Below the pieces are notes generated by a model, which was given only the letters and a program-made list of their open reading frames with translations, was not told the origin of the DNA and searched no databases. A program made the position numbers and the translations under genes. From Myxococcales bacterium (lineage in GTDB: Bacteria > Myxococcota > Myxococcia > Myxococcales > JAJYLH01), in the NCBI GenBank assembly GCA_021787845.1, contig JAJYLH010000001.1, forward strand, positions 238,736-302,735: a DNA stretch of 64,000 bases. The letters are read 5' to 3'. Below are positions 15,267-42,501 of this stretch, one piece after another. Numbering within the stretch: position 1 is the stretch's first letter; every line of letters starts with the position of its first letter.

Positions 15267-16853
15267 TCACCGTCTTGGCGTGTTCGACACGCCGCAGCTC
15301 ACCGAGAAGTCCACCGCGTCCCCCGCGGCGCGGGTCGGTCCGAGCGTGGGAGCGCTGAAGAACTTGGACCCTTCCAGCCGCTTGACGAAGCTCGCCACGT
15401 CGTCGTAGGAGGCGGCGCTCCCGGTCATGGTCGCCTTTCCCCCCTGTATCTCGAACGTCTTCAGCCACACCCGCTTCGGGATGATCGTCGACAGCTCGTC
15501 CATCACCCGCACCGGGCCGGTCCGCCCGTCCTTGAGGGTCTGGAGCACCTTGAGCTTCTGCTCGATGTTCGCTTTCTCCGCCTTGATGTTCTTGACGTCG
15601 CCGATGATGCTCTTGAGCTTCTTGATCTGAACGTTGAAGTTCTCGACCCGTTCGTGCGCCGCGTTCAGGCCCTGCTGGGTGGCGTCGTACCAGAAGTAGT
15701 TGCCGACGGCCGCCCCGAAGAAGACCAACGCGAACAACACCAGCCACTGCTTGCCGACCTCGCGCTTCTTCGAGGCGCGCACCGGCAGGAGGTTGATGTC
15801 GTCGTCGACCTTTCGCAGCGCGAGCCCGACGCCCACCGCCGACGACGGCGCGATCTCCATCAGATAGGCGGGGTCGAACTTGCGGTTGTCGATCTCGATC
15901 GCCTTGAACGGGTTGAGGATTTCGACCGGGACCCCGATGCGCTGCTCGATGATCTTGAACAGGCTCGGAATCTTCGCGGTGCCGCCCGAGAGGTAGACCT
16001 TGGAGATGCGCGCGTCCGCCGCGGTCGCGGCGTAGAAGTCCAGGCTGCGCTGAATCTCCCCCGCGAGCTGCGCGGCGACGCCCTGGATGACCCGCTCCAC
16101 CTCCTGCGGAACCACCGAGTCGGTCTCGCTCAGGTCGCCCCCGACCTTGAGCTTCTCCGCCTCGTCGTAGCTGACGTTGAGCTGCTTCTGAATCTCCTCG
16201 GTGAACTGGTTGCCGCCCATCGAGACGTCGCGGGTGAACGTCGTGACGCCCTGGGCGATGACGTTGATGTTGACGACGCTCGCGCCGACGTTGATGAGAA
16301 CCACCGTGTCGGTGTGCGAAATCTCGTAGGAGGTCTCGAACGCGCGTTGGACCGCGAAGGCGTCGACCGCGACCACCGTGGGGACGAGGCCCGCCTCCGC
16401 GATCACCGCGCTGTAGTCGTTGATCATGTCCTTCTTGGCGGCGACCAGAAGGACGTCCATGTGGCCGGTGGCGTCGTCGCCGGTGCCGAGGAGCTTGACG
16501 TCGATGTTCACGTCCTTGACGTCGAAGGGGATGTACTGCTCCGCCTCCCACTGGATCGATTCGTCCAGCTCCTCCTTCGTCATCTTCGGCAGCGAGATCT
16601 TCTTGATGATGACGCTGTGGCCGCTGATGCCCAGGGCGACGTTCTTGTTCTTGATCTTCGCCTGGGCGAACAGCTCCCGGATCGCGTCGACGATGGCCGC
16701 GCTGTTCATCAGCGCGCCGTCGACGATCGCTTCCGGCGGCAGCGGCGCCACGCCGAACGAGTCGAGGACGAAGCCGCGCTTGCTCTCCCGCAGGTGGACG
16801 AGCTTCACGCTCGAGGAGCCGATGTCGAGGCCGACCGCGAGCTTCTGCGCCAC
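15267..16853 (-). CDS. pilMN: fused PilM-PilN (actin-like ATPase PilM joined in frame to the PilN N-terminal INLLP motif, TM helix and periplasmic domain)
   Basis: Single 528-aa ORF. Residues 1 to about 350 are PilM-like (MAQKLAVGLDIGSSSVKLV...GLALRKVDD). This is followed without a stop by DINLLPVRASKKREVGKQWLVLFALVFFGAAVG and a PilN-like domain. Confidence 0.8.
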   Translation of the reverse strand: MAQKLAVGLDIGSSSVKLVHLRESKRGFVLDSFGVAPLPPEAIVDGALMNSAAIVDAIRELFAQAKIKNKNVALGISGHSVIIKKISLPKMTKEELDESIQWEAEQYIPFDVKDVNIDVKLLGTGDDATGHMDVLLVAAKKDMINDYSAVIAEAGLVPTVVAVDAFAVQRAFETSYEISHTDTVVLINVGASVVNINVIAQGVTTFTRDVSMGGNQFTEEIQKQLNVSYDEAEKLKVGGDLSETDSVVPQEVERVIQGVAAQLAGEIQRSLDFYAATAADARISKVYLSGGTAKIPSLFKIIEQRIGVPVEILNPFKAIEIDNRKFDPAYLMEIAPSSAVGVGLALRKVDDDINLLPVRASKKREVGKQWLVLFALVFFGAAVGNYFWYDATQQGLNAAHERVENFNVQIKKLKSIIGDVKNIKAEKANIEQKLKVLQTLKDGRTGPVRVMDELSTIIPKRVWLKTFEIQGGKATMTGSAASYDDVASFVKRLEGSKFFSAPTLGPTRAAGDAVDFSVSCGVSNTPRR

Positions 16854-17148
16854 TGCCCTCTCCTCAAAACGCCCGGCCGTCTCGCCATCGGCCTGGCCGC
16901 CCCCTCAAACGGCGGGGCTCCGTCCCGGTGATTTCGCTCCCCCTCGACCAGGAGCGCCTCCCGAGCGCGAGAGGCGATGTTACACTGCGGCCGAAGCGCC
17001 CTCCAAGTTTTCGACCGCCACAGAGCCTGCTTTTGTGGGCGCATGGAGGCTTGCGGCGCACCCCTGACGACCCACGACGAAAGACGATGCTAGGACGGCG
17101 AGCGGCCTTGGCAAGAAAACGGCCGCCTCTCGTTCTTGGGAGCCCTCG

Positions 17149-22653: not shown

Positions 22654-22708
22654 GAAAAGAGAATAGCGCGAACCACTGCCGTCCAAGAACGCGCCGCATC
22701 GGAGATGT

Positions 22709-22972
22709 CCGCTCATCCCGAGCGCGGTCGATGGATGGGCGTCGCCGCAGAGAACCGCTCGTCCCTCGTCCTTCGACTGGCGGTAGCGCGGGGCTTGCGC
22801 CCGCTACCCAAGCCATGGGGCGGGGGCTTGTCCTCCGCCGCGACAGGAGCCGACTTCTCGAGCACGGCGGGGACAAGCCCCCGCCCGACAGATCTGGTTC
22901 GGTCACAGAATCTTCGCGCGGCGACAAGATTCTGCGGCTCAGTGGATCACGATGACCGCTCGGGATGAGCGG
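22709..22972. other. 264-bp element bounded by 16-bp perfect terminal inverted repeats with nested hairpins (MITE-like or structured RNA)
   Basis: Left arm CCGCTCATCCCGAGCG (22709-22724) is the exact reverse complement of CGCTCGGGATGAGCGG (22957-22972). Inside are a 16-bp perfect inverted repeat (GGGGCGGGGGCTTGTCC at about 22816-22832 with GGACAAGCCCCCGCCC at about 22871-22886), a 9-bp inverted repeat (CAGAATCTT-N11-AAGATTCTG at about 22906-22934), and GGTAGCG...CGCTACC at about 22782-22808. Confidence 0.6.
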
Positions 22973-23045
22973 TTCTTCCGCTACGAGAAGGATTCTGTTT
23001 GGACAGGAGTGAGCGCGAACCTCCGGCCGAGGGGCCGGCCGGACC

Positions 23046-23846
23046 TCAGCGCGCTGGCGGTGGGAGGCGGTAGAAACGGCGGGCGTTCTCGGCCGTCATC
23101 TCCGCGAGCTCTTCGGCGGCGATGCCCCTCACCTGCGCGAGCGCCTCGAGCGTGCGGGCGACGAACGCCGGCTCGTTGCGCTGGCCGCGATGTGGAACCG
23201 GAGCGAGGTAGGGCGAGTCGGTCTCGACGAGAAGTCGGTCGAGCGGGACGAGCTTCGCCGCCTCGCGCAGCTCACCGGCGGCCCGGAAGGTGAGGATTCC
23301 CGAGAACGAAATCCACAGACCGCGGTCCAGGTAGGCCCGCGCGGCGGCGCGATCTCCCGTGAAGCAGTGGACGACCGCGCCCGCTGGGGGGACCCCGGCC
23401 TCGTCCAGGATGCGGCAGGTGTCCTGGTCCGCCTCGCGGGTGTGGATGAGGAGCGGCTTGCCCGCTTCGTGCGCGAGGCGGTTGAAGTGCCGAAAGCCCT
23501 CGGCTTGAGCGTCGCGCGGCGAGTGATCGTAGTGGTAGTCGAGACCGGTCTCGCCGACCGCCACCACTTCCGGTCGCCGGCAAAGCTCATCGACGGCGCT
23601 CCAGTCCGCCTTCGGGGCGGCCGCGACGTCGTGCGGGTGGATGCAGACCGCGGGCGAGAAGAGAGGGCGATTCGTCGCCGCGAGCCGGAGGGCGCGCTCG
23701 GCGGAAGCGGCCCCCTCCTTCTCGCGCCAGAGGCCGACGAGAACCATGTGCTCGACGCCGGCCGCGATCGCCCGTGCCACCACCTGGTCGCGGTCCCCAT
23801 CGAACTCGGCGGAATCGATGTGGCAGTGCGAGTCGATCAGCCGCAT
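23046..23846 (-). CDS. tatD: TatD-family metal-dependent DNase/hydrolase
   Basis: Starts MRLIDSHCHID. Has HxH, the GETGLDYHY motif, and ETDSPYL. It is internal to track ORF 23046..24062. Confidence 0.85.
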   Translation of the reverse strand: MRLIDSHCHIDSAEFDGDRDQVVARAIAAGVEHMVLVGLWREKEGAASAERALRLAATNRPLFSPAVCIHPHDVAAAPKADWSAVDELCRRPEVVAVGETGLDYHYDHSPRDAQAEGFRHFNRLAHEAGKPLLIHTREADQDTCRILDEAGVPPAGAVVHCFTGDRAAARAYLDRGLWISFSGILTFRAAGELREAAKLVPLDRLLVETDSPYLAPVPHRGQRNEPAFVARTLEALAQVRGIAAEELAEMTAENARRFYRLPPPAR

Positions 23847-24775
23847 GGGACGAAGACCTCCGCGGGATGGGCGTGACGCAGCGCCGCCGCGAGGCGGACG
23901 CGACGGGCGACGCGACCGAGCTCCGTTTCTCGTTCGCAGTGCGCGGGCGCGACGAGCGCTGCCCGTTCCCAGTCGATTTGGAAGAGTCCCCGGAGAATCT
24001 CGCCCGCGACGTGCGGGTCGGTGTCGACGTGCTGCGCGAGGGCCTCTTGCGCTCCCGGCCACCAGGAGCGGTCGACGCGCGTCAGCGCGAGCAGCGCCGA
24101 CTCCCGCAGGTAGTCGGTCGAATCCTGCGCCACCTCTTCCACCAGCGACCGCCCGTCCCCCGGCAGCGCTGCCGCCAACTTCACGATCAGCATCGGCCGC
24201 TCTTCGGCCCGTTTTTTGCGCGCCCGCGCGAGCACGTGCGCGCGCGCCCCCGCGTCTCCCTGGGCGGCGAGGTAGAGCGCTGCGAGCCCCCGTTCGAACG
24301 GCGGAGCGAAAATCGACCGGAAGATCTGCCTTGCCATCTCGGCAAAGCGTGGATCGTCCAGCTCGAAGAGCGACTGGAGCGCGTCAAACCGAAATTGCTT
24401 CTCGGCAGCGAGCGCCACGAGCTTCTCCTCCGCCCTTCGATCGCCGGCGTAGGCGAGGCCGTCAGCGGCCACCGCGGCGACGCCGAGGTCGGAATCCGCG
24501 AGCTTGCGAAAGAGGAGGTCGCGCCGCCCACGCCAGGGACATCCGGCGAGCGCCGCCACCGCCGCCAGTCGCACGCCCGGCACTTGGTCGTCGGCGAGCT
24601 GGTCGAGGAGCGGGAGGGTCTCTTTCGGAGCGCCGGTCGCCGCAATGAACTTTGCTGCAGCGCCACGGGTGATCGGCTGCGGAGCTGCACTATACTGCCG
24701 GGCCTCCTCGAAGGCCTGCGAAAGGCGATCGGGCGGGACCTCGTCCAGCGCTGGCAGCTCCGGGTCTTTGGCCAC
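23837..24775 (-). CDS. HEAT/PBS-lyase-like repeat protein
   Basis: 312 aa of repeated helical pairs (VRLAAVAALAG / LGVAAVAADGLAYAGD). It overlaps the tatD start by 10 nt and abuts the metG stop. Confidence 0.55.
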   Translation of the reverse strand: MAKDPELPALDEVPPDRLSQAFEEARQYSAAPQPITRGAAAKFIAATGAPKETLPLLDQLADDQVPGVRLAAVAALAGCPWRGRRDLLFRKLADSDLGVAAVAADGLAYAGDRRAEEKLVALAAEKQFRFDALQSLFELDDPRFAEMARQIFRSIFAPPFERGLAALYLAAQGDAGARAHVLARARKKRAEERPMLIVKLAAALPGDGRSLVEEVAQDSTDYLRESALLALTRVDRSWWPGAQEALAQHVDTDPHVAGEILRGLFQIDWERAALVAPAHCERETELGRVARRVRLAAALRHAHPAEVFVPCG

Positions 24776-26812
24776 CTACTTCACCCGCGCGCCCGGCGCC
24801 ACGTCGGCCGGCACCTCGGTGACCGATAGCCCTCTTGCTCCTCCGCCCGCGGCCAGGACCATGCCTTGGGAGACGAACTCGGTCTTCCCGATTTTCATCG
24901 TCCGGGGCGCGAGGTTCGCGACCACCACCACCGACTTGCCGACGAGATCTTCCGGTCGGTAGGCATTGGCGATGCCGGCGCCGATGGTCCGGGGCGTCCC
25001 CTCGCCCAGATCGACGGAGAGCCTCAGCATCTTCTCCGACTTCGGAATCGCCTCCGCCGCGAGGATCTTTCCGACCCGCAGGTCGGCCTTCATGAAGTCG
25101 TCGAAGGTCATCTCGGCGGCCATCGGCGCGGCTGGCTCGGCGGCAGCGCTCACGGCGACCGGAGCCGCTTCCTTGGGGGCGAAGAGCTTCTCCAAGGCGC
25201 CGGCCTCGATGGGTGGCAGGAGCGGTGCCGGGGTACCGATCTCGTGCCTCTCGAGGTTGAAAGCGACGCCGTCATCCCAGTTCTTCGGTCGCACGTTGAT
25301 CTGCGCGAATAGCTCTTCCGCAACCTTGGGGACGATTGGCTGAAGCATGGTTCCAAGGGCTTTCAGAACGTTCGCAAGCAACGTGACGTCCGCCAACGCC
25401 ACGTCGGGGTCTGTCTTGAAAGTCTTGAACGGAGCGTGGCTCTGCATGTACGCGTTGGCCCAGAGTCCCATCGCCTCGATCTGCTGGACAGCGTACCTGT
25501 AGTTCAAGGTCTTGAAGCCCCGAAGGGCATTCCCGCAAGTCTCGGCGAGTGATGCCCGCGTGTCCGGCTCGATCGTCAGCGCGCCAATACGCCCGCTGAA
25601 TCGGGTCTTGACGAAGGAAAGAACTCTATTGGCAAGATTTCCCACGTTGTTGACGAGCTGCGAGTTGACGCGGTTCTTCAGCTCGTCGAGCGAGAATTCG
25701 ATGTCGTCAAGGGACGGTCCCAGGTTCGCCGCGAGGTAGTAGCGCAGGTACGCCGGGTCGAGGGCGTCCAGCCATTCGCGTGCGGTGATCATCCGGCCGC
25801 GAGACTTCGACATCTTCGCGCCGCCCAGGTTGAGCATGCCGTGGACGTGAACCTTCGTCGGGCGCGCGAGCCCGGCGGCGTGGAGCATGGCCGGCCAGAA
25901 GAGCGCGTGGAAGTAGACGATGTCCTTGCCGATGACGTGGACGACCTCGCCGTCGTCCGAATGCTCGCTGGTTCCTGTCCACCAGTGTCCGAGTTCCTGC
26001 CCACGCGCCTTCGCCTCGGTCTCGGCCGCGCTGATGTAGCCGATGGGCGCGTCGAGCCAGACGTAAAAATACTTGCCCGGTTGGTCAGGAATCTCGAAGC
26101 CGAAATAGGGGCCGTCGCGCGAGATGCACCAGTCCTGCAGCCCCTCGTCGATCCAGCGGGTGACGTAGTTGCGGACCTCCGGCTGTAGCGCCGGTGAGCT
26201 GGAGTACTCCCGCAGGAAGGGAGCGAAACCGCTCAGCTTGACGAACAGGTGCGTCGACTCTTTGCGCACGGGCCTGTTGCGGCAGAGGACGCAATACGGC
26301 TCCTCCAGATCGATCGGCTGGTACGTCTTGTTGCAGTTCTCGCAGACGTCGCCGTACTGGTCCCTCGCCTTGCACGAAGGACAGATGCCCTTGACGAATC
26401 GATCGGGCAGGAACCGCTGGTCATTCTCGCAATAGAATTGTTCGAGCGGCTTCTCGAAGACGTGCCCGCCCGCCTTCAGGCTGGCGTAGATGCGCTCGGC
26501 CCAGCGGCGGTTCTCCTCGGTGTTGGTGGACGAGTAGAGGTCGAACGAGACTTGGAAATCGCGGAAGTCGCGCTCGTGCTCGGTCCGATAGCGCTCGACC
26601 ATCACTGCCGGTTCGAGGCCCTGTTTCTTCGCGTTCACCTCGATGGGCGTTCCATGGGTATCGGCAGCGCAGACGTAGAGCACGTCGCGCCCGAGGAGCC
26701 GATTGAAGCGCGCGTAGATGTCGCTCTGGATGTTCTCGACCAGGTGCCCCAGGTGGATGGGGCCGTTGGCGTAGGGCAGGGCGCTGGTGAGTAGCAGCGG
26801 TCTCGAGGACAT
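24776..26812 (-). CDS. metG: methionyl-tRNA synthetase (with a C-terminal EMAP-like tRNA-binding domain)
   Basis: Starts MSSRPLLLTSALPYANGPIHLGHL (HIGH motif). KMSKS is present. The C-terminal domain (KILAAEAIPKSEKMLRLSVDLGEG) is a tRNA-binding fold. Confidence 0.92.
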   Translation of the reverse strand: MSSRPLLLTSALPYANGPIHLGHLVENIQSDIYARFNRLLGRDVLYVCAADTHGTPIEVNAKKQGLEPAVMVERYRTEHERDFRDFQVSFDLYSSTNTEENRRWAERIYASLKAGGHVFEKPLEQFYCENDQRFLPDRFVKGICPSCKARDQYGDVCENCNKTYQPIDLEEPYCVLCRNRPVRKESTHLFVKLSGFAPFLREYSSSPALQPEVRNYVTRWIDEGLQDWCISRDGPYFGFEIPDQPGKYFYVWLDAPIGYISAAETEAKARGQELGHWWTGTSEHSDDGEVVHVIGKDIVYFHALFWPAMLHAAGLARPTKVHVHGMLNLGGAKMSKSRGRMITAREWLDALDPAYLRYYLAANLGPSLDDIEFSLDELKNRVNSQLVNNVGNLANRVLSFVKTRFSGRIGALTIEPDTRASLAETCGNALRGFKTLNYRYAVQQIEAMGLWANAYMQSHAPFKTFKTDPDVALADVTLLANVLKALGTMLQPIVPKVAEELFAQINVRPKNWDDGVAFNLERHEIGTPAPLLPPIEAGALEKLFAPKEAAPVAVSAAAEPAAPMAAEMTFDDFMKADLRVGKILAAEAIPKSEKMLRLSVDLGEGTPRTIGAGIANAYRPEDLVGKSVVVVANLAPRTMKIGKTEFVSQGMVLAAGGGARGLSVTEVPADVAPGARVK

Positions 26813-26925
26813 CGTTCGCTCCCTTCGGGCTCGTTCGCCGCGCCGCTCGACGTTCGGGATGAGCGGTGCGAGAACGTGGACCGCTCCAGAACCACGGACT
26901 GCGGTGCGGCGCAACAAGAGCGAAT

Positions 26926-28449
26926 CTAGGGCGTGTCGGCCGGCGGCGCTCCGGCTCCCCCTTCGGGGTCCCCGCCGGCACCGCTTCCGCCAGGCCGATG
27001 ATGGCGGCGGCGCCGGTGATGGCGACCGCTCTTGGCGGGCGCCGGTGCTTCGGGGCTCTTCGCTCCCGCCGGCGGATGCGCCTCGGCCGCGCCCGCCGCC
27101 GGTTTCGCCTCCGGCCTCGCCTTCTGCGGCGTGGGCTCCACTTCCGGGGTCGCCGGAAGCCGGCGGGGGCGGGGCAGCGGCGGCGCGGACTTCGCTTCGG
27201 CGGCGATGGGCGGCGTGCCGGCGTCCCCTTCGAGCGGCGTCGCCGGGTGGGCCCGCGGATGGTGCGATCCCCGGCGCGGTCGAGGTGGCCCCGGCCGATC
27301 GGTCGCGTTCGGGGGGAGGCTCGCTGCTGCCGGCCCTCCGCGCGCGCTCTCGACCGGCGCCCGCGGGTCCCTCGGCATTCCAGGAGCGCCTCCATGAGGC
27401 TTGAGCGCTGCCGGAGATCGGCTCTGCTCATGCCGAGAAGATGCGCTCCCGGGTGGCGACGGTTCGGTTGGCGCCGATCGCCCCTGGGCCCGCAGGGGAG
27501 CTGCTGCGGCGGGAAGGCCCTCGGCGCTGGTCGCGACGGTACGGGGAGCGGCTGCCCTCCCGGAATCCTCCTGCGCTCCTGTCGTCACCGGAGCCGGCGT
27601 GCCGAGCGGAGAGATCTCCGTGGCCGGCAGCTCGACCGACTCGCCGCCGACCAGGACCCGTACCGTTCCCCGCAGCGCGTACACGTCGACGACCTTCCCC
27701 ACGCCGCGCGGGCAGGTCACCTGCTTGCCGATTTTCGGCAGGCCCTTGCGCAGGTCCTTGTACGTCGCCTGTTCGTAGGCGAGGCAGCACAAGAGCCGCC
27801 CGCAGACGCCGGTGACGCTCTGCGGGTTGAGCGCGAGCCCCTGGTCCTTCGCCATCTTGATGCTGACCGGGGCGAATGCCCGCATCCAGGAGGAGCAGCA
27901 GGTTTCGCGCCCGCAGGGGCCGAGGGCGCCGAGAATCTTCGCCTCGTCGCGCGGGCCGACCACCCGCATCTCGACCCGCGTCCGCAGCCGCTGCGCGAGA
28001 TCCCGCACCAGCGTGCGGAAGTCGACCCGCTCCTCGCTCGCGAAATAGAAGGTCACCTTCTCGTTCGAGTGCGCCCAGTCGGCCGCGATCAGCTTGATGT
28101 CGAGCTTGAGCTGGCGGGCCCGGGTCGCGCAGAAGACGAGCGCCTCCCGTTCATTCTCGCGATGGGACTTCTCCCGCGAGAGGTCCCGTTCGGTCGCCAC
28201 GCGCACGACGCGGGCGCTCGGCGTCGAGGACCGCGCGCGCAGGGGCTCGGGCTGTGGCGTTCCCACCGTCCAGCCGAGCGCCTCGCCGTGCTCGGTCGGG
28301 ACGACCACCCGGGTGCCGTGGGGGAGCTCGAGCGCGCCCGCGTCGAACTCTTGAACCGTCGCGGCCGCGCGGCGCAGTTGCACGCTGACGAACCGGCGCG
28401 GCGCCGGCTCGCTCGGGCTGGTTTCCTCGGTCGGCGCTGGTTCGCTCAC
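26926..28449 (-). CDS. PSP1 C-terminal-domain protein (RicT/YaaT-like) with a long Pro/Ala-rich C-terminal extension
   Basis: PSP1 core (LVFCATRARQLKLDIKLIAADWAHSNEKVTFYFASEERVDFRTLVRDLAQRLRTRVEMR ... CGRETCC). No in-frame ATG precedes the domain, so a GTG start (VSEPAPTEE) with an upstream GGAGACGAG is proposed; the start is uncertain. Confidence 0.55.
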   Translation of the reverse strand: MSEPAPTEETSPSEPAPRRFVSVQLRRAAATVQEFDAGALELPHGTRVVVPTEHGEALGWTVGTPQPEPLRARSSTPSARVVRVATERDLSREKSHRENEREALVFCATRARQLKLDIKLIAADWAHSNEKVTFYFASEERVDFRTLVRDLAQRLRTRVEMRVVGPRDEAKILGALGPCGRETCCSSWMRAFAPVSIKMAKDQGLALNPQSVTGVCGRLLCCLAYEQATYKDLRKGLPKIGKQVTCPRGVGKVVDVYALRGTVRVLVGGESVELPATEISPLGTPAPVTTGAQEDSGRAAAPRTVATSAEGLPAAAAPLRAQGRSAPTEPSPPGSASSRHEQSRSPAALKPHGGAPGMPRDPRAPVESARGGPAAASLPPNATDRPGPPRPRRGSHHPRAHPATPLEGDAGTPPIAAEAKSAPPLPRPRRLPATPEVEPTPQKARPEAKPAAGAAEAHPPAGAKSPEAPAPAKSGRHHRRRRHHRPGGSGAGGDPEGGAGAPPADTP

Positions 28450-28712
28450 CGCTTCTGGCTCGTCTCCCTCGGGGGAGCGAACCTCTTTATCGCCACCTGG
28501 CAGCCGGCACCACTGGAATCTCAAATGGCGGCGAGCCGTCGGGCGCTGGCGAGCTGGAACCGAATCATCGGAACGGTCCCGCGCCCCTCGTTCCGGCTCG
28601 TCCTGAACGCTCTCGGGCGGGCGGGAACCCGAGCCCGTCGCCGTTCGACTGCGCCGAGGGTGAGCGGTCCAGGACGGCGTGGCCCGTGCCCGGTCGTTCC
28701 CTCCCCGGCCAC

Positions 28713-40344: not shown

Positions 40345-41817
<1,473 letters not shown>

Positions 41818-42465
41818 TCAGCCCTTCGGGCGGCGGCGCTTCGGCTTCTTAGGAGCGGACTCGGGCTTCGGCACCGCTCCCGCCAGGTCCGCCGGCCACA
41901 ACAGGTCGAGGTCGAGCTCGATCGCGTCGAACGGCTGCGCGCGGACCTTGCCGCCTTCGCTGAAGAACGACCGCTGGGCCCATTTTCCGCGGGCCAGCTC
42001 CCAGACGGTCAGCGTCTTCTCCAATGGCTCGAGGAACCACAGCCAACGCACGCCATGGCGCGCGTAGTACGGCATTTTCTCGACACGGTCGTAACGTTTC
42101 GTCGAGGGCGAGAGAACCTCGCATACCCAGTCGGGTACTACGCGAATAGGCTCGTCTGGGGATTGTGCGGCGAAGCGCTCGCGCTTCCATCCGGCAACAT
42201 CGGGGTCGGCCTCATCGCCCGGCTCCAACTCGACGCCTGGCTCAACCAAGATGACCCAGCCTCCAGGACCACTGACACCGAGGTCGAACCCGGAGTCGAT
42301 CAGTGTTCCGAGCCGCGCCTCAGCGTGCGAGTGACGTGGGCGAGGACGCGGGCTGACGTGCAACTCGCCGTCGAGAATCTCGCCGACCACGTTTTCGGGA
42401 AGAGACTCGAACACGGCGCGAACCGTGCGGGCGACCTTGCGCACGGCGGCAGTGGACGACCGCAT
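41818..42465 (-). CDS. Uma2-family (DUF820) putative endonuclease, paralog 2
   Basis: 215 aa with PDWVCEVLSPSTKRYDRVEKMPYYARHGVRWLWFLEP; it is a clear paralog of 17910..18506. Confidence 0.7.
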   Translation of the reverse strand: MRSSTAAVRKVARTVRAVFESLPENVVGEILDGELHVSPRPRPRHSHAEARLGTLIDSGFDLGVSGPGGWVILVEPGVELEPGDEADPDVAGWKRERFAAQSPDEPIRVVPDWVCEVLSPSTKRYDRVEKMPYYARHGVRWLWFLEPLEKTLTVWELARGKWAQRSFFSEGGKVRAQPFDAIELDLDLLWPADLAGAVPKPESAPKKPKRRRPKG

Positions 42466-42501
42466 CTGACGCCTCCGTCTCGAAGAATAGCGCGAGGTCG
42501 C

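Follow-up and report, generated by a model that had tools for sequence, protein, structure and literature searches.

The 64,000-nucleotide stretch of Myxococcales bacterium DNA analyzed here (contig JAJYLH010000001.1, positions 238,736 to 302,735; hereafter the window, to whose first letter all coordinates refer) has a housekeeping gene content (pilM/N/O/Q, efp, metG, pyrD, thiC, glyS, ruvC/B and lon), with ASH/DUF1573 proteins also among its open reading frames (ORFs); these proteins and the type IV pilus genes give it a myxobacterium-like look. Within it, metG, a HEAT-repeat gene and tatD mutually overlap or abut, and a long spacer separates tatD from a gene encoding a zinc-ribbon (ZnR) protein that has an N-terminal zinc ribbon and, towards its C terminus, a TPR match that is weak (E about 2e-3) and falls short of the Pfam cutoff, and whose designation as a membrane protein is putative. 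In this spacer, a reading made from the sequence alone had singled out a 264-bp unit (22709-22972) bounded by 16-bp perfect terminal inverted repeats, and had proposed that it was either a MITE (miniature inverted-repeat transposable element) or a structured RNA. Our analysis redefines this unit as the inner part of a 338-bp element (Table 1), around which all genes lie on the minus strand.

The 16-bp arms are present as described: CCGCTCATCCCGAGCG at 22709-22724 and its exact reverse complement at 22957-22972 enclose 232 nt. They do not, however, constitute the termini of the element. There is no target-site duplication around the 264-bp unit, whose flanks read GAGATGT and TTCTTCC. A transposon-like signature lies instead 35-39 nt outside its ends, where 13-nt imperfect terminal inverted repeats (CACTSCYGTCCAA, matching at 11/13 positions) are each directly abutted by a perfect 9-bp repeat. 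Because both the duplication and the terminal repeats lie outside the 264-bp unit, we take the element to be the 338-bp segment and not the 264-bp one. Nowhere else in the 64 kb is a direct repeat combined with an adjacent inverted repeat, and shuffled sequence produced 0.08 such cases per window. With shuffling confined to the short flank on either side of the 264-bp unit, the repeat together with an adjacent 11/13 inverted repeat appeared in 0/200,000 trials, while the 9-bp direct repeat alone had a probability of P = 0.011. The two ends of the element can be aligned to each other over ~85 nt with indels, an alignment in which the perfect 16-mer forms a subterminal block. The termini resemble Tc1 ends, but an IS630/Tc1 affinity was rejected, there being no TA duplication.

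Table 1. Features of the tatD-ZnR junction and of the element inserted in it, in window coordinates.
Feature	Coordinates	Strand	Description
Whole element as redefined	22674-23011		338 bp
Left direct-repeat copy, AGCGCGAAC	22665-22673		9 bp, putative target-site duplication; 10 bp counting C22674
Left outer terminal inverted repeat, CACTGCCGTCCAA	22674-22686		
Right outer terminal inverted repeat, TTGGACAGGAGTG	22999-23011		Reverse complement of CACTCCTGTCCAA
Right direct-repeat copy, AGCGCGAAC	23012-23020		9 bp
Complete 36-nt hairpin unit	22708-22743	plus	Loop GAGCGCGGTCGA on a CATCC/GGATG stem; the left 16-bp arm, 22709-22724, is formed by its first 16 nt
Degenerate third copy of the arm motif, AGAACCGCTCGTCCC	22751-22765	plus	Can pair with the right arm, 14/15
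Hairpin H3	22782-22808		GGTAGCG...CGCTACC stem; inner GGC-GCAA-GCC stem-loop read on the minus strand
Hairpin H2	22818-22886		69 nt; 16-bp perfect inverted repeat; inverted doublet resembling a REPIN
Hairpin H1	22906-22934		9-bp perfect stem CAGAATCTT/AAGATTCTG, 11-nt loop
Truncated inverted hairpin unit	22939-22973	minus	Outer 16-17 nt kept (22957-22972 is the right 16-bp arm); loop and 3' stem degenerated
GC-rich hairpin UCCGGCCG-GCCCCU-CGGCCGGA	23022-23043	minus	Pre-existing, just after the tatD stop
metG	24776-26917	minus	
HEAT-repeat gene	23837-24775	minus	
tatD	23046-23846	minus	Pfam TatD_DNase, E 2e-84; gene end at 23046
tatD-ZnR spacer	22654-23045		392 nt
Zinc-ribbon/TPR membrane-protein gene (ZnR)	ATG 22653	minus	451 aa

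Comparison with a related locus agrees with these boundaries. Homology searches against 5.8 billion proteins returned only two ZnR homologues, 52% and 42% identical to the window protein. The first of these belongs to the only relative that keeps the tatD-ZnR adjacency (L001; tatD 72% identical), where the genes follow one another in the same metG-HEAT-tatD-ZnR order as in the window and the tatD-ZnR spacer measures 39 nt. Removing the 338-bp element and one copy of the direct repeat from the window leaves a spacer of ~45 nt that is collinear with that of L001, the two presenting in the same order a stop codon, a GC-rich hairpin, the motif CGCG.TAT.CT and then the ATG. The element is located immediately 3' of the hairpin that trails the tatD stop codon, and L001 also has a hairpin at that position. 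Five more metG-HEAT-tatD loci were identified via the HEAT protein (best 68% identical); they harbor other genes after tatD, and nothing similar to the element was found in them. Close relatives of the host lineage are not available, as these identities of the best homologues (52% for ZnR, 68% for the HEAT protein) indicate. The 42%-identical ZnR orthologue (L002 9707-10000, also L003) resides in a different gene context, preceded by a non-coding spacer of ~290 nt that has direct and inverted repeats of its own (GTGAGTCAC...; agcccctgaaNcagtgagt twice) and is unrelated in sequence to the window element.

The spacer shows no sign of coding capacity. GC content at third codon positions (GC3) is flat across it, at 0.64-0.68 in 6/6 frames, versus 0.82-0.96 for the genes of the window, and the concatenated stop-free frames of the element, compared with the same 5.8 billion proteins for spurious ORFs on sister copies, had no match at E <= 10. 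The sequence-only reading was right in stating that no protein-like ORF lies inside, as it was in placing the feature between the tatD stop and the start of the zinc-ribbon gene, both of which are on the minus strand. A pattern scan found neither a sigma-70-like promoter nor a canonical terminator inside the spacer. Upstream of ZnR (22656-22690, minus strand), a TATTCT ends 6 nt before the ATG and is preceded, at a distance of 15 nt, by the terminal TTGGAC of the element; L001 presents TATCCT at a nearly equal position, ending 7 nt before its own ATG. The TTGGAC/TATTCT pair might act as a weak promoter of hybrid origin giving a leaderless mRNA, although the promoter scan made no call there.

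The interior of the element is rich in palindromes. Its two nested 16-bp inverted repeats are the two longest perfect ones (gap <=400 nt) in the window, against a chance level, estimated by block shuffles, of 0.05 perfect inverted repeats of at least 16 bp per 64 kb; the next longest are two of 15 bp, at 5558-5572/5717-5731 and 36875-36889/37180-37194. The inner of the nested pair, reported earlier with a 38-nt spacer, joins GGGCGGGGGCTTGTCC at 22818-22833 to 22871-22886 at 16/16 positions across an actual spacer of 37 nt. The two shorter stems of the earlier description were recovered without amendment, namely a 9-bp repeat with an 11-nt loop (CAGAATCTT at 22906-22914 pairing with AAGATTCTG at 22926-22934) and a further stem of 7 bp (GGTAGCG at 22782-22788 with CGCTACC at 22802-22808). 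The right arm has two mutually exclusive closing partners, 22709-22724 (16/16) or the near-copy of the left arm at 22751-22765 (14/15). This near-copy, 46 nt downstream of the left arm, pairs with 22962-22976 at 14/15 positions, or 15/15 if a G-U pair on the plus strand is counted.

Two of the interior hairpins, H2 and H3, resemble repetitive extragenic palindromes (REPs). Each arm of H2 is itself a small hairpin, GGCGGGG-GCTTGT-CCCCGCC, and H3 has a GCAA tetraloop. As to the conserved 5' GT(A/G)G head of REP sequences, H3 carries a REP-like GGTAG on both strands, the H2 arms are preceded by GTCG, and the 36-nt unit that contains the 16-bp arms has no such head. H2 and H3 resemble the REP sequences given in Table 1 of PMC2817692 (Nunvar et al.), GTGGGAGGGGGCTTGCCCCCGAT from P. 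fluorescens and GGTAGCGCCGGGCCATGCCCGGCG, and fit the architecture of REP doublets forming hairpins (REPINs) described in PMC3116915, in both cases as a resemblance only. In common with REPs and REPINs, H2 and the head-to-head arm units are short palindromes arranged as inverted doublets in an extragenic position after the tatD stop. None of the interior modules recurs in the window or in any of the loci with which it was compared.

The 16-bp arms have relatives elsewhere. Exact-match scans with the arm yielded mostly single matches in unrelated genomes and viral contigs, but in a subset of them the likeness extends over ~30 nt, following the pattern CCGC-TCATCCC-GAGCG(NN)GTCGA-GGGAYG, and a scan with CCGAGCGAAGTCGAGGG returned 40 viral stretches, several of them with 2-4 copies on one strand. 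What these sequences share is a hairpin whose 12-nt loop, GAGCG-NN-GTCGA, is invariant and whose stem varies freely yet stays paired (CGTCCC/GGGACG, CGTGTC/GACACG, CGTTTC/GAAAC, CATCTT/AAGATC, CGTATC/GATACG and CGTGCC/GGCACG among the variants). In an alignment of 43 distinct units, which had been selected for pairing, 89.5% of the stem cells are paired and 41 cells have changed on both sides; these values were reached by 0/500 shuffles, and every slid register fell far lower. An unselected control, made up of loop matches whose stems were not fixed by the search pattern, had at least 5 of 6 pairs in 27/42 cases, versus ~3% expected at random.

Carriers of this unit include Polymorphobacter, a Chthoniobacterales metagenome-assembled genome (MAG; Verrucomicrobiota), a Chloroflexi MAG, Sphingobium and phage contigs. 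Head-to-head doublets, the usual arrangement, measure ~75 nt with their CCGYTC ends outward and occur around a phage major-capsid gene (L082 182-247 and 1439-1507) and 8 nt after the stop of an IclR gene on a Sphingobium megaplasmid (L114, NZ_CP016453.1, 1501-1567), and same-strand single units lie between phage portal and terminase genes, antisense to both. The unit is also borne by L094 (293-4001), L042 and L097. Rfam gave no match to the hairpin unit in ten unit-carrying loci, and literature searches by sequence and by peptides returned no paper matching it. Related low-GC variants presumably give rise to well-known spurious ORF peptides, and annotators may have met the unit informally.

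We then used a covariance model (R1) of this family, built without the window sequence and comprising a 6-bp covarying stem, the invariant 12-nt loop and a CCGYTC 5' flank. It gave a single significant match in the window (30.9 bits, E 2e-5), located on the plus strand at 22708-22743, against 13.3 bits (E 0.45) for the inverted partner at 22939-22973; no hairpin unit was detected with R1 in the related metG-HEAT-tatD loci. These results show that the 16-bp repeats initially taken for termini are subterminal and make up the outer halves of two hairpin units set head-to-head. A one-mismatch copy of the 16-mer arm, CCGCTCATCCCGAACG, was also noted at 26851-26866 (minus strand), near the 5' end of the metG ORF; it is probably due to chance, the hairpin-unit model giving it only 8.8 bits. 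We tentatively entertain the possibility that the unit, with its loop on a freely covarying stem of 4-6 bp, represents an undescribed family spanning several phyla and phages, bound by a conserved protein or mobilized by an unknown enzyme, and that the 338-bp element is a transposon by which it is carried and spread.

To assess copy number, we searched the window and several sequence collections. In the window, no second copy was detected by blastn (word size 7) or when both 16-mers and the termini were searched with mismatches allowed. A collection of one genome per species (185,579 species, the host genome not included), searched through exact block matches, yielded no copy of the 338-bp element and none of its termini, and a GANGNNCCGCTCATCCCGAGCG scan of the same collection gave 30 single matches in unrelated genomes, most of which match the pattern only, while a few are real hairpin units. 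Two pattern scans of JGI metagenomes, likewise requiring exact block matches (both arms with a gap; a terminus plus an arm), returned zero matches. Against plasmids and phages, blastn of the whole spacer gave chance matches only, or none. Scanning IMG/VR with the H2 arm and with the termini likewise yielded nothing beyond chance matches. Among Logan k-mer contigs of the same organism, exact matches to the window were found in L041 (19540-22780) and L034 (22753-25936), each of which runs from unique flank through one boundary of the element, and the 417-kb source contig spans the element. The contig break inside the element was considered as a sign of a repeat and set aside, the 28-nt overlap between L041 and L034 fitting a read-coverage gap rather than a graph branch.

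On this evidence we favor, with moderate confidence, the view that the region is a MITE-like non-autonomous transposon or an internally deleted insertion sequence (IS) remnant, with a mosaic of palindromic modules as its cargo, inserted by a trans-acting DDE transposase through 9-bp staggered cuts; the IS remnant could equally account for what is seen. The traits expected of a MITE that are present are a length of 338 bp without a transposase ORF, within the MITE range of about 50-800 bp, the 11/13 terminal inverted repeats and the 9-bp flanking duplication. In keeping with a non-autonomous element, Pfam scans of the ORFs of all 64 kb revealed no transposase, REP-associated tyrosine transposase (RAYT) or reverse transcriptase domain. 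The shorter spacer of L001, the absence of the element from the five other loci, the stable fold (z = -7.9 on the mRNA-sense strand) and the membership of one arm in the hairpin family also count in favor. An ancestral tatD-ZnR spacer of ~45 nt would have taken the insertion immediately 3' of the post-tatD hairpin. A DDE-type transposase supplied in trans would have recognized the termini of 13 nt (CACTSCYGTCCAA) and cut AGCGCGAAC with a 9-bp stagger, and repair of this cut would have given the flanking direct repeat. The cargo would consist of two head-to-head 36-nt hairpin units, one intact and one decayed, with three REP/REPIN-like hairpins between them.

The genes on both sides of the element run in one direction, and in the orthologous gene string the spacer is 39 nt, so the element is probably co-transcribed with the operon. 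Once transcribed, it would be predicted to fold into a very stable multi-branch stem, which, on the analogy of Correia, ERIC and REP elements (PMC10969869), could attenuate read-through, or could provide an RNase III/E processing site or a stabilizing site between tatD and ZnR. The element may thereby decouple the membrane-protein gene from the metG-HEAT-tatD transcript.

Several observations weigh against a transposon. Neither the 338-bp element nor its termini turned up a second time in any collection searched, which is absence of evidence only. Given how de Bruijn assembly works, the two contigs that run from unique flank across the boundaries, and the source contig that spans the element, argue against a host with several near-identical copies; diverged copies may exist. 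No parent IS has been linked to the element, and the REP-like modules that make up its interior belong to a kind that usually spreads without duplicating its target site. The multiple dispersed copies with target-site duplications by which the sequence-only reading proposed to recognize a MITE did not appear in the window, species genomes, metagenomes, plasmids, phages or IMG/VR, and multi-copy status, a defining feature of MITEs, is unproven for the 338-bp element. Of the two alternatives put forward by that reading, the MITE is the better one, though not as first described: the 264-bp unit itself has no duplication, its 16-bp arms are subterminal, and the duplication and the terminal inverted repeats are located further out.

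A less probable explanation, which we regard as unlikely but worth weighing, is that a palindrome cluster similar to bacterial interspersed mosaic elements (BIMEs) was built up on the spot, behind the 3' end of tatD, through successive REP/REPIN-type insertions mediated by an HUH/RAYT-type single-strand transposase, the outer repeats being incidental. The arms form a head-to-head doublet of a unit that elsewhere makes up ~75-nt doublets after gene ends without any target-site duplication, and their extragenic placement at a gene 3' end agrees with such accretion, as do the H2 inverted doublet and the H3 GGTAG heads in their resemblance to REP sequences (PMC2817692) and to the REPIN architecture (PMC3116915). 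The spacing of the two units, however, is 195 nt, versus 0-30 nt in typical doublets. REP families have tens to hundreds of copies per genome, whereas no other copy of any module, and no RAYT, was seen in the 64-kb window, and the direct repeat with its adjoining terminal inverted repeat, which would have to be incidental, is extremely unlikely to have arisen by chance.

We consider it improbable that the region is a selected structured RNA, whatever its origin, acting as a leader, processing site or attenuator of the tatD-ZnR transcript or as an independent small RNA. The predicted stability of the spacer is exceptional on the mRNA-sense (minus) strand (-214.7 kcal/mol, z = -7.9 versus shuffles, compared with z = -4.9 on the antisense, plus strand), three perfect stems persist despite the imperfect outer ends, and the right arm has two alternative partners, 22709-22724 or 22751-22765. 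Single hairpin units elsewhere are also intergenic and consistently antisense to the flanking genes, as they are in the window. Yet perfect inverted repeats are equally expected of young mobile DNA, and the G-U versus A-C asymmetry within the hairpin family is mixed, singling out neither strand as the one on which the unit acts. The large fold has no homologue, and hence no covariation, and contains no promoter-like or canonical terminator-like site. The conserved leader or 3' RNA envisaged by the sequence-only reading is not borne out, the element being absent from the orthologous tatD-ZnR junction of L001 and from the five other metG-HEAT-tatD loci. The Rfam check that it suggested gave no family for the spacer at E <= 10, where the only matches were chance ones to miRNA-type hairpins, and a search of the whole window at the gathering threshold identified a tRNA-Leu gene only.

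An orphan retron-like msr/msd template, in which a1/a2 inverted repeats would enclose a ~230-nt region with a long hairpin, has the geometry of the 16-bp inverted repeats around 232 nt with a long central hairpin as its sole support, and is effectively refuted: there is no reverse transcriptase gene adjacent to the element or anywhere in the window and no Rfam msr match, the downstream gene has orthologues without the element, and the target-site duplication, the outer inverted repeats and the membership of the arms in the hairpin family would all be left unexplained.

Other parts of the window presented features of separate interest. At 15267-16904 (minus strand), PilM and PilN domains share one ORF, after which come pilO and a pilQ secretin with an AMIN domain; this suggests a fused PilM-PilN. 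The thiC gene (40345-41817, minus strand) is adjoined at its start by a Uma2-family ORF (41818-42501), and no thiamine pyrophosphate (TPP) riboswitch reached the Rfam gathering score anywhere in the window. Upstream of metG, ~1.3 kb (27428-28712) are devoid of Pfam-supported genes and contain a 617-aa plus-strand ORF with atypical codon-position GC and no domain match.

For genome annotation, a transposon origin would mean that the long tatD-ZnR spacer is selfish palindromic DNA and not a riboswitch or a small-RNA gene. Taken as a whole, the element is nothing out of the ordinary, a mosaic resembling MITEs or REPs, although its single-copy state is unusual. Its wider interest lies in the arm motif, a compact hairpin found after gene ends in Sphingobium, Chloroflexi and Verrucomicrobiota and between phage structural genes and absent from Rfam. 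Should this motif turn out to be a recognized site of binding, or a mobile unit of a new REP-like kind, it would serve as a useful annotation marker, since the unit seeds spurious ORFs, and would constitute a testable small element shared between phages and their hosts.

The known systems to which the element can be compared include the retron msr/msd loci. Myxobacterial retrons have a1/a2 inverted repeats around a region with a long hairpin, and the inverted repeats that bracket ~230 nt with a long hairpin in the element are similar in this respect, but the element differs from such loci in having no reverse transcriptase and no msr match, and in a duplication and outer repeats that a retron would not explain. 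They also include bacterial MITEs, such as MITEAba12, Correia/NEMIS and ERIC (reviewed in PMC10969869; see also PMC6382973). The element shares with them its small size (338 bp), its non-coding nature, its terminal inverted repeats and its 9-bp target-site duplication, as well as its intergenic location, its probable co-transcription and a long hairpin that may be an RNase target or attenuator, a role shown for the folded hairpins of Correia and ERIC (PMC10969869). It departs from them in being known from a single copy without an identified parent IS, in having short and imperfect (11/13) terminal repeats with the perfect repeats subterminal, and in an interior that is a mosaic of independent hairpin modules and not a simple fold-back.

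The resemblance to REP, REPIN and BIME extragenic palindromes (PMC3116915, PMC3337134, PMC2817692) resides in the inverted doublets of short GC-rich hairpins just after gene ends and, for the arm unit, in a covarying stem, a conserved remainder and the occurrence as doublets. REP families are species-restricted, possess a GT(A/G)G head and a RAYT gene, and number tens to hundreds of copies in each genome, whereas the element is present in one copy per 64 kb with no RAYT in the window, and the arm unit has an invariant 12-nt loop and no GTAG head and is common to several phyla and phages. REPINs, moreover, leave no target-site duplication, unlike the element. With respect to the unnamed family of hairpin units, the window pair is distinguished in that 195 nt separate its units, where 0-30 nt is usual, that the second has decayed past its first 17 nt and that the pair is embedded in a larger element with a flanking target-site duplication. 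The intact unit at 22708-22743, on the other hand, fits the full model of the family, CCGCU-CAUCC(C)-GAGCGCGGUCGA-(U)GGAUG, and the two units are arranged head-to-head with their CCGYTC ends outward, as in the Sphingobium and phage doublets.

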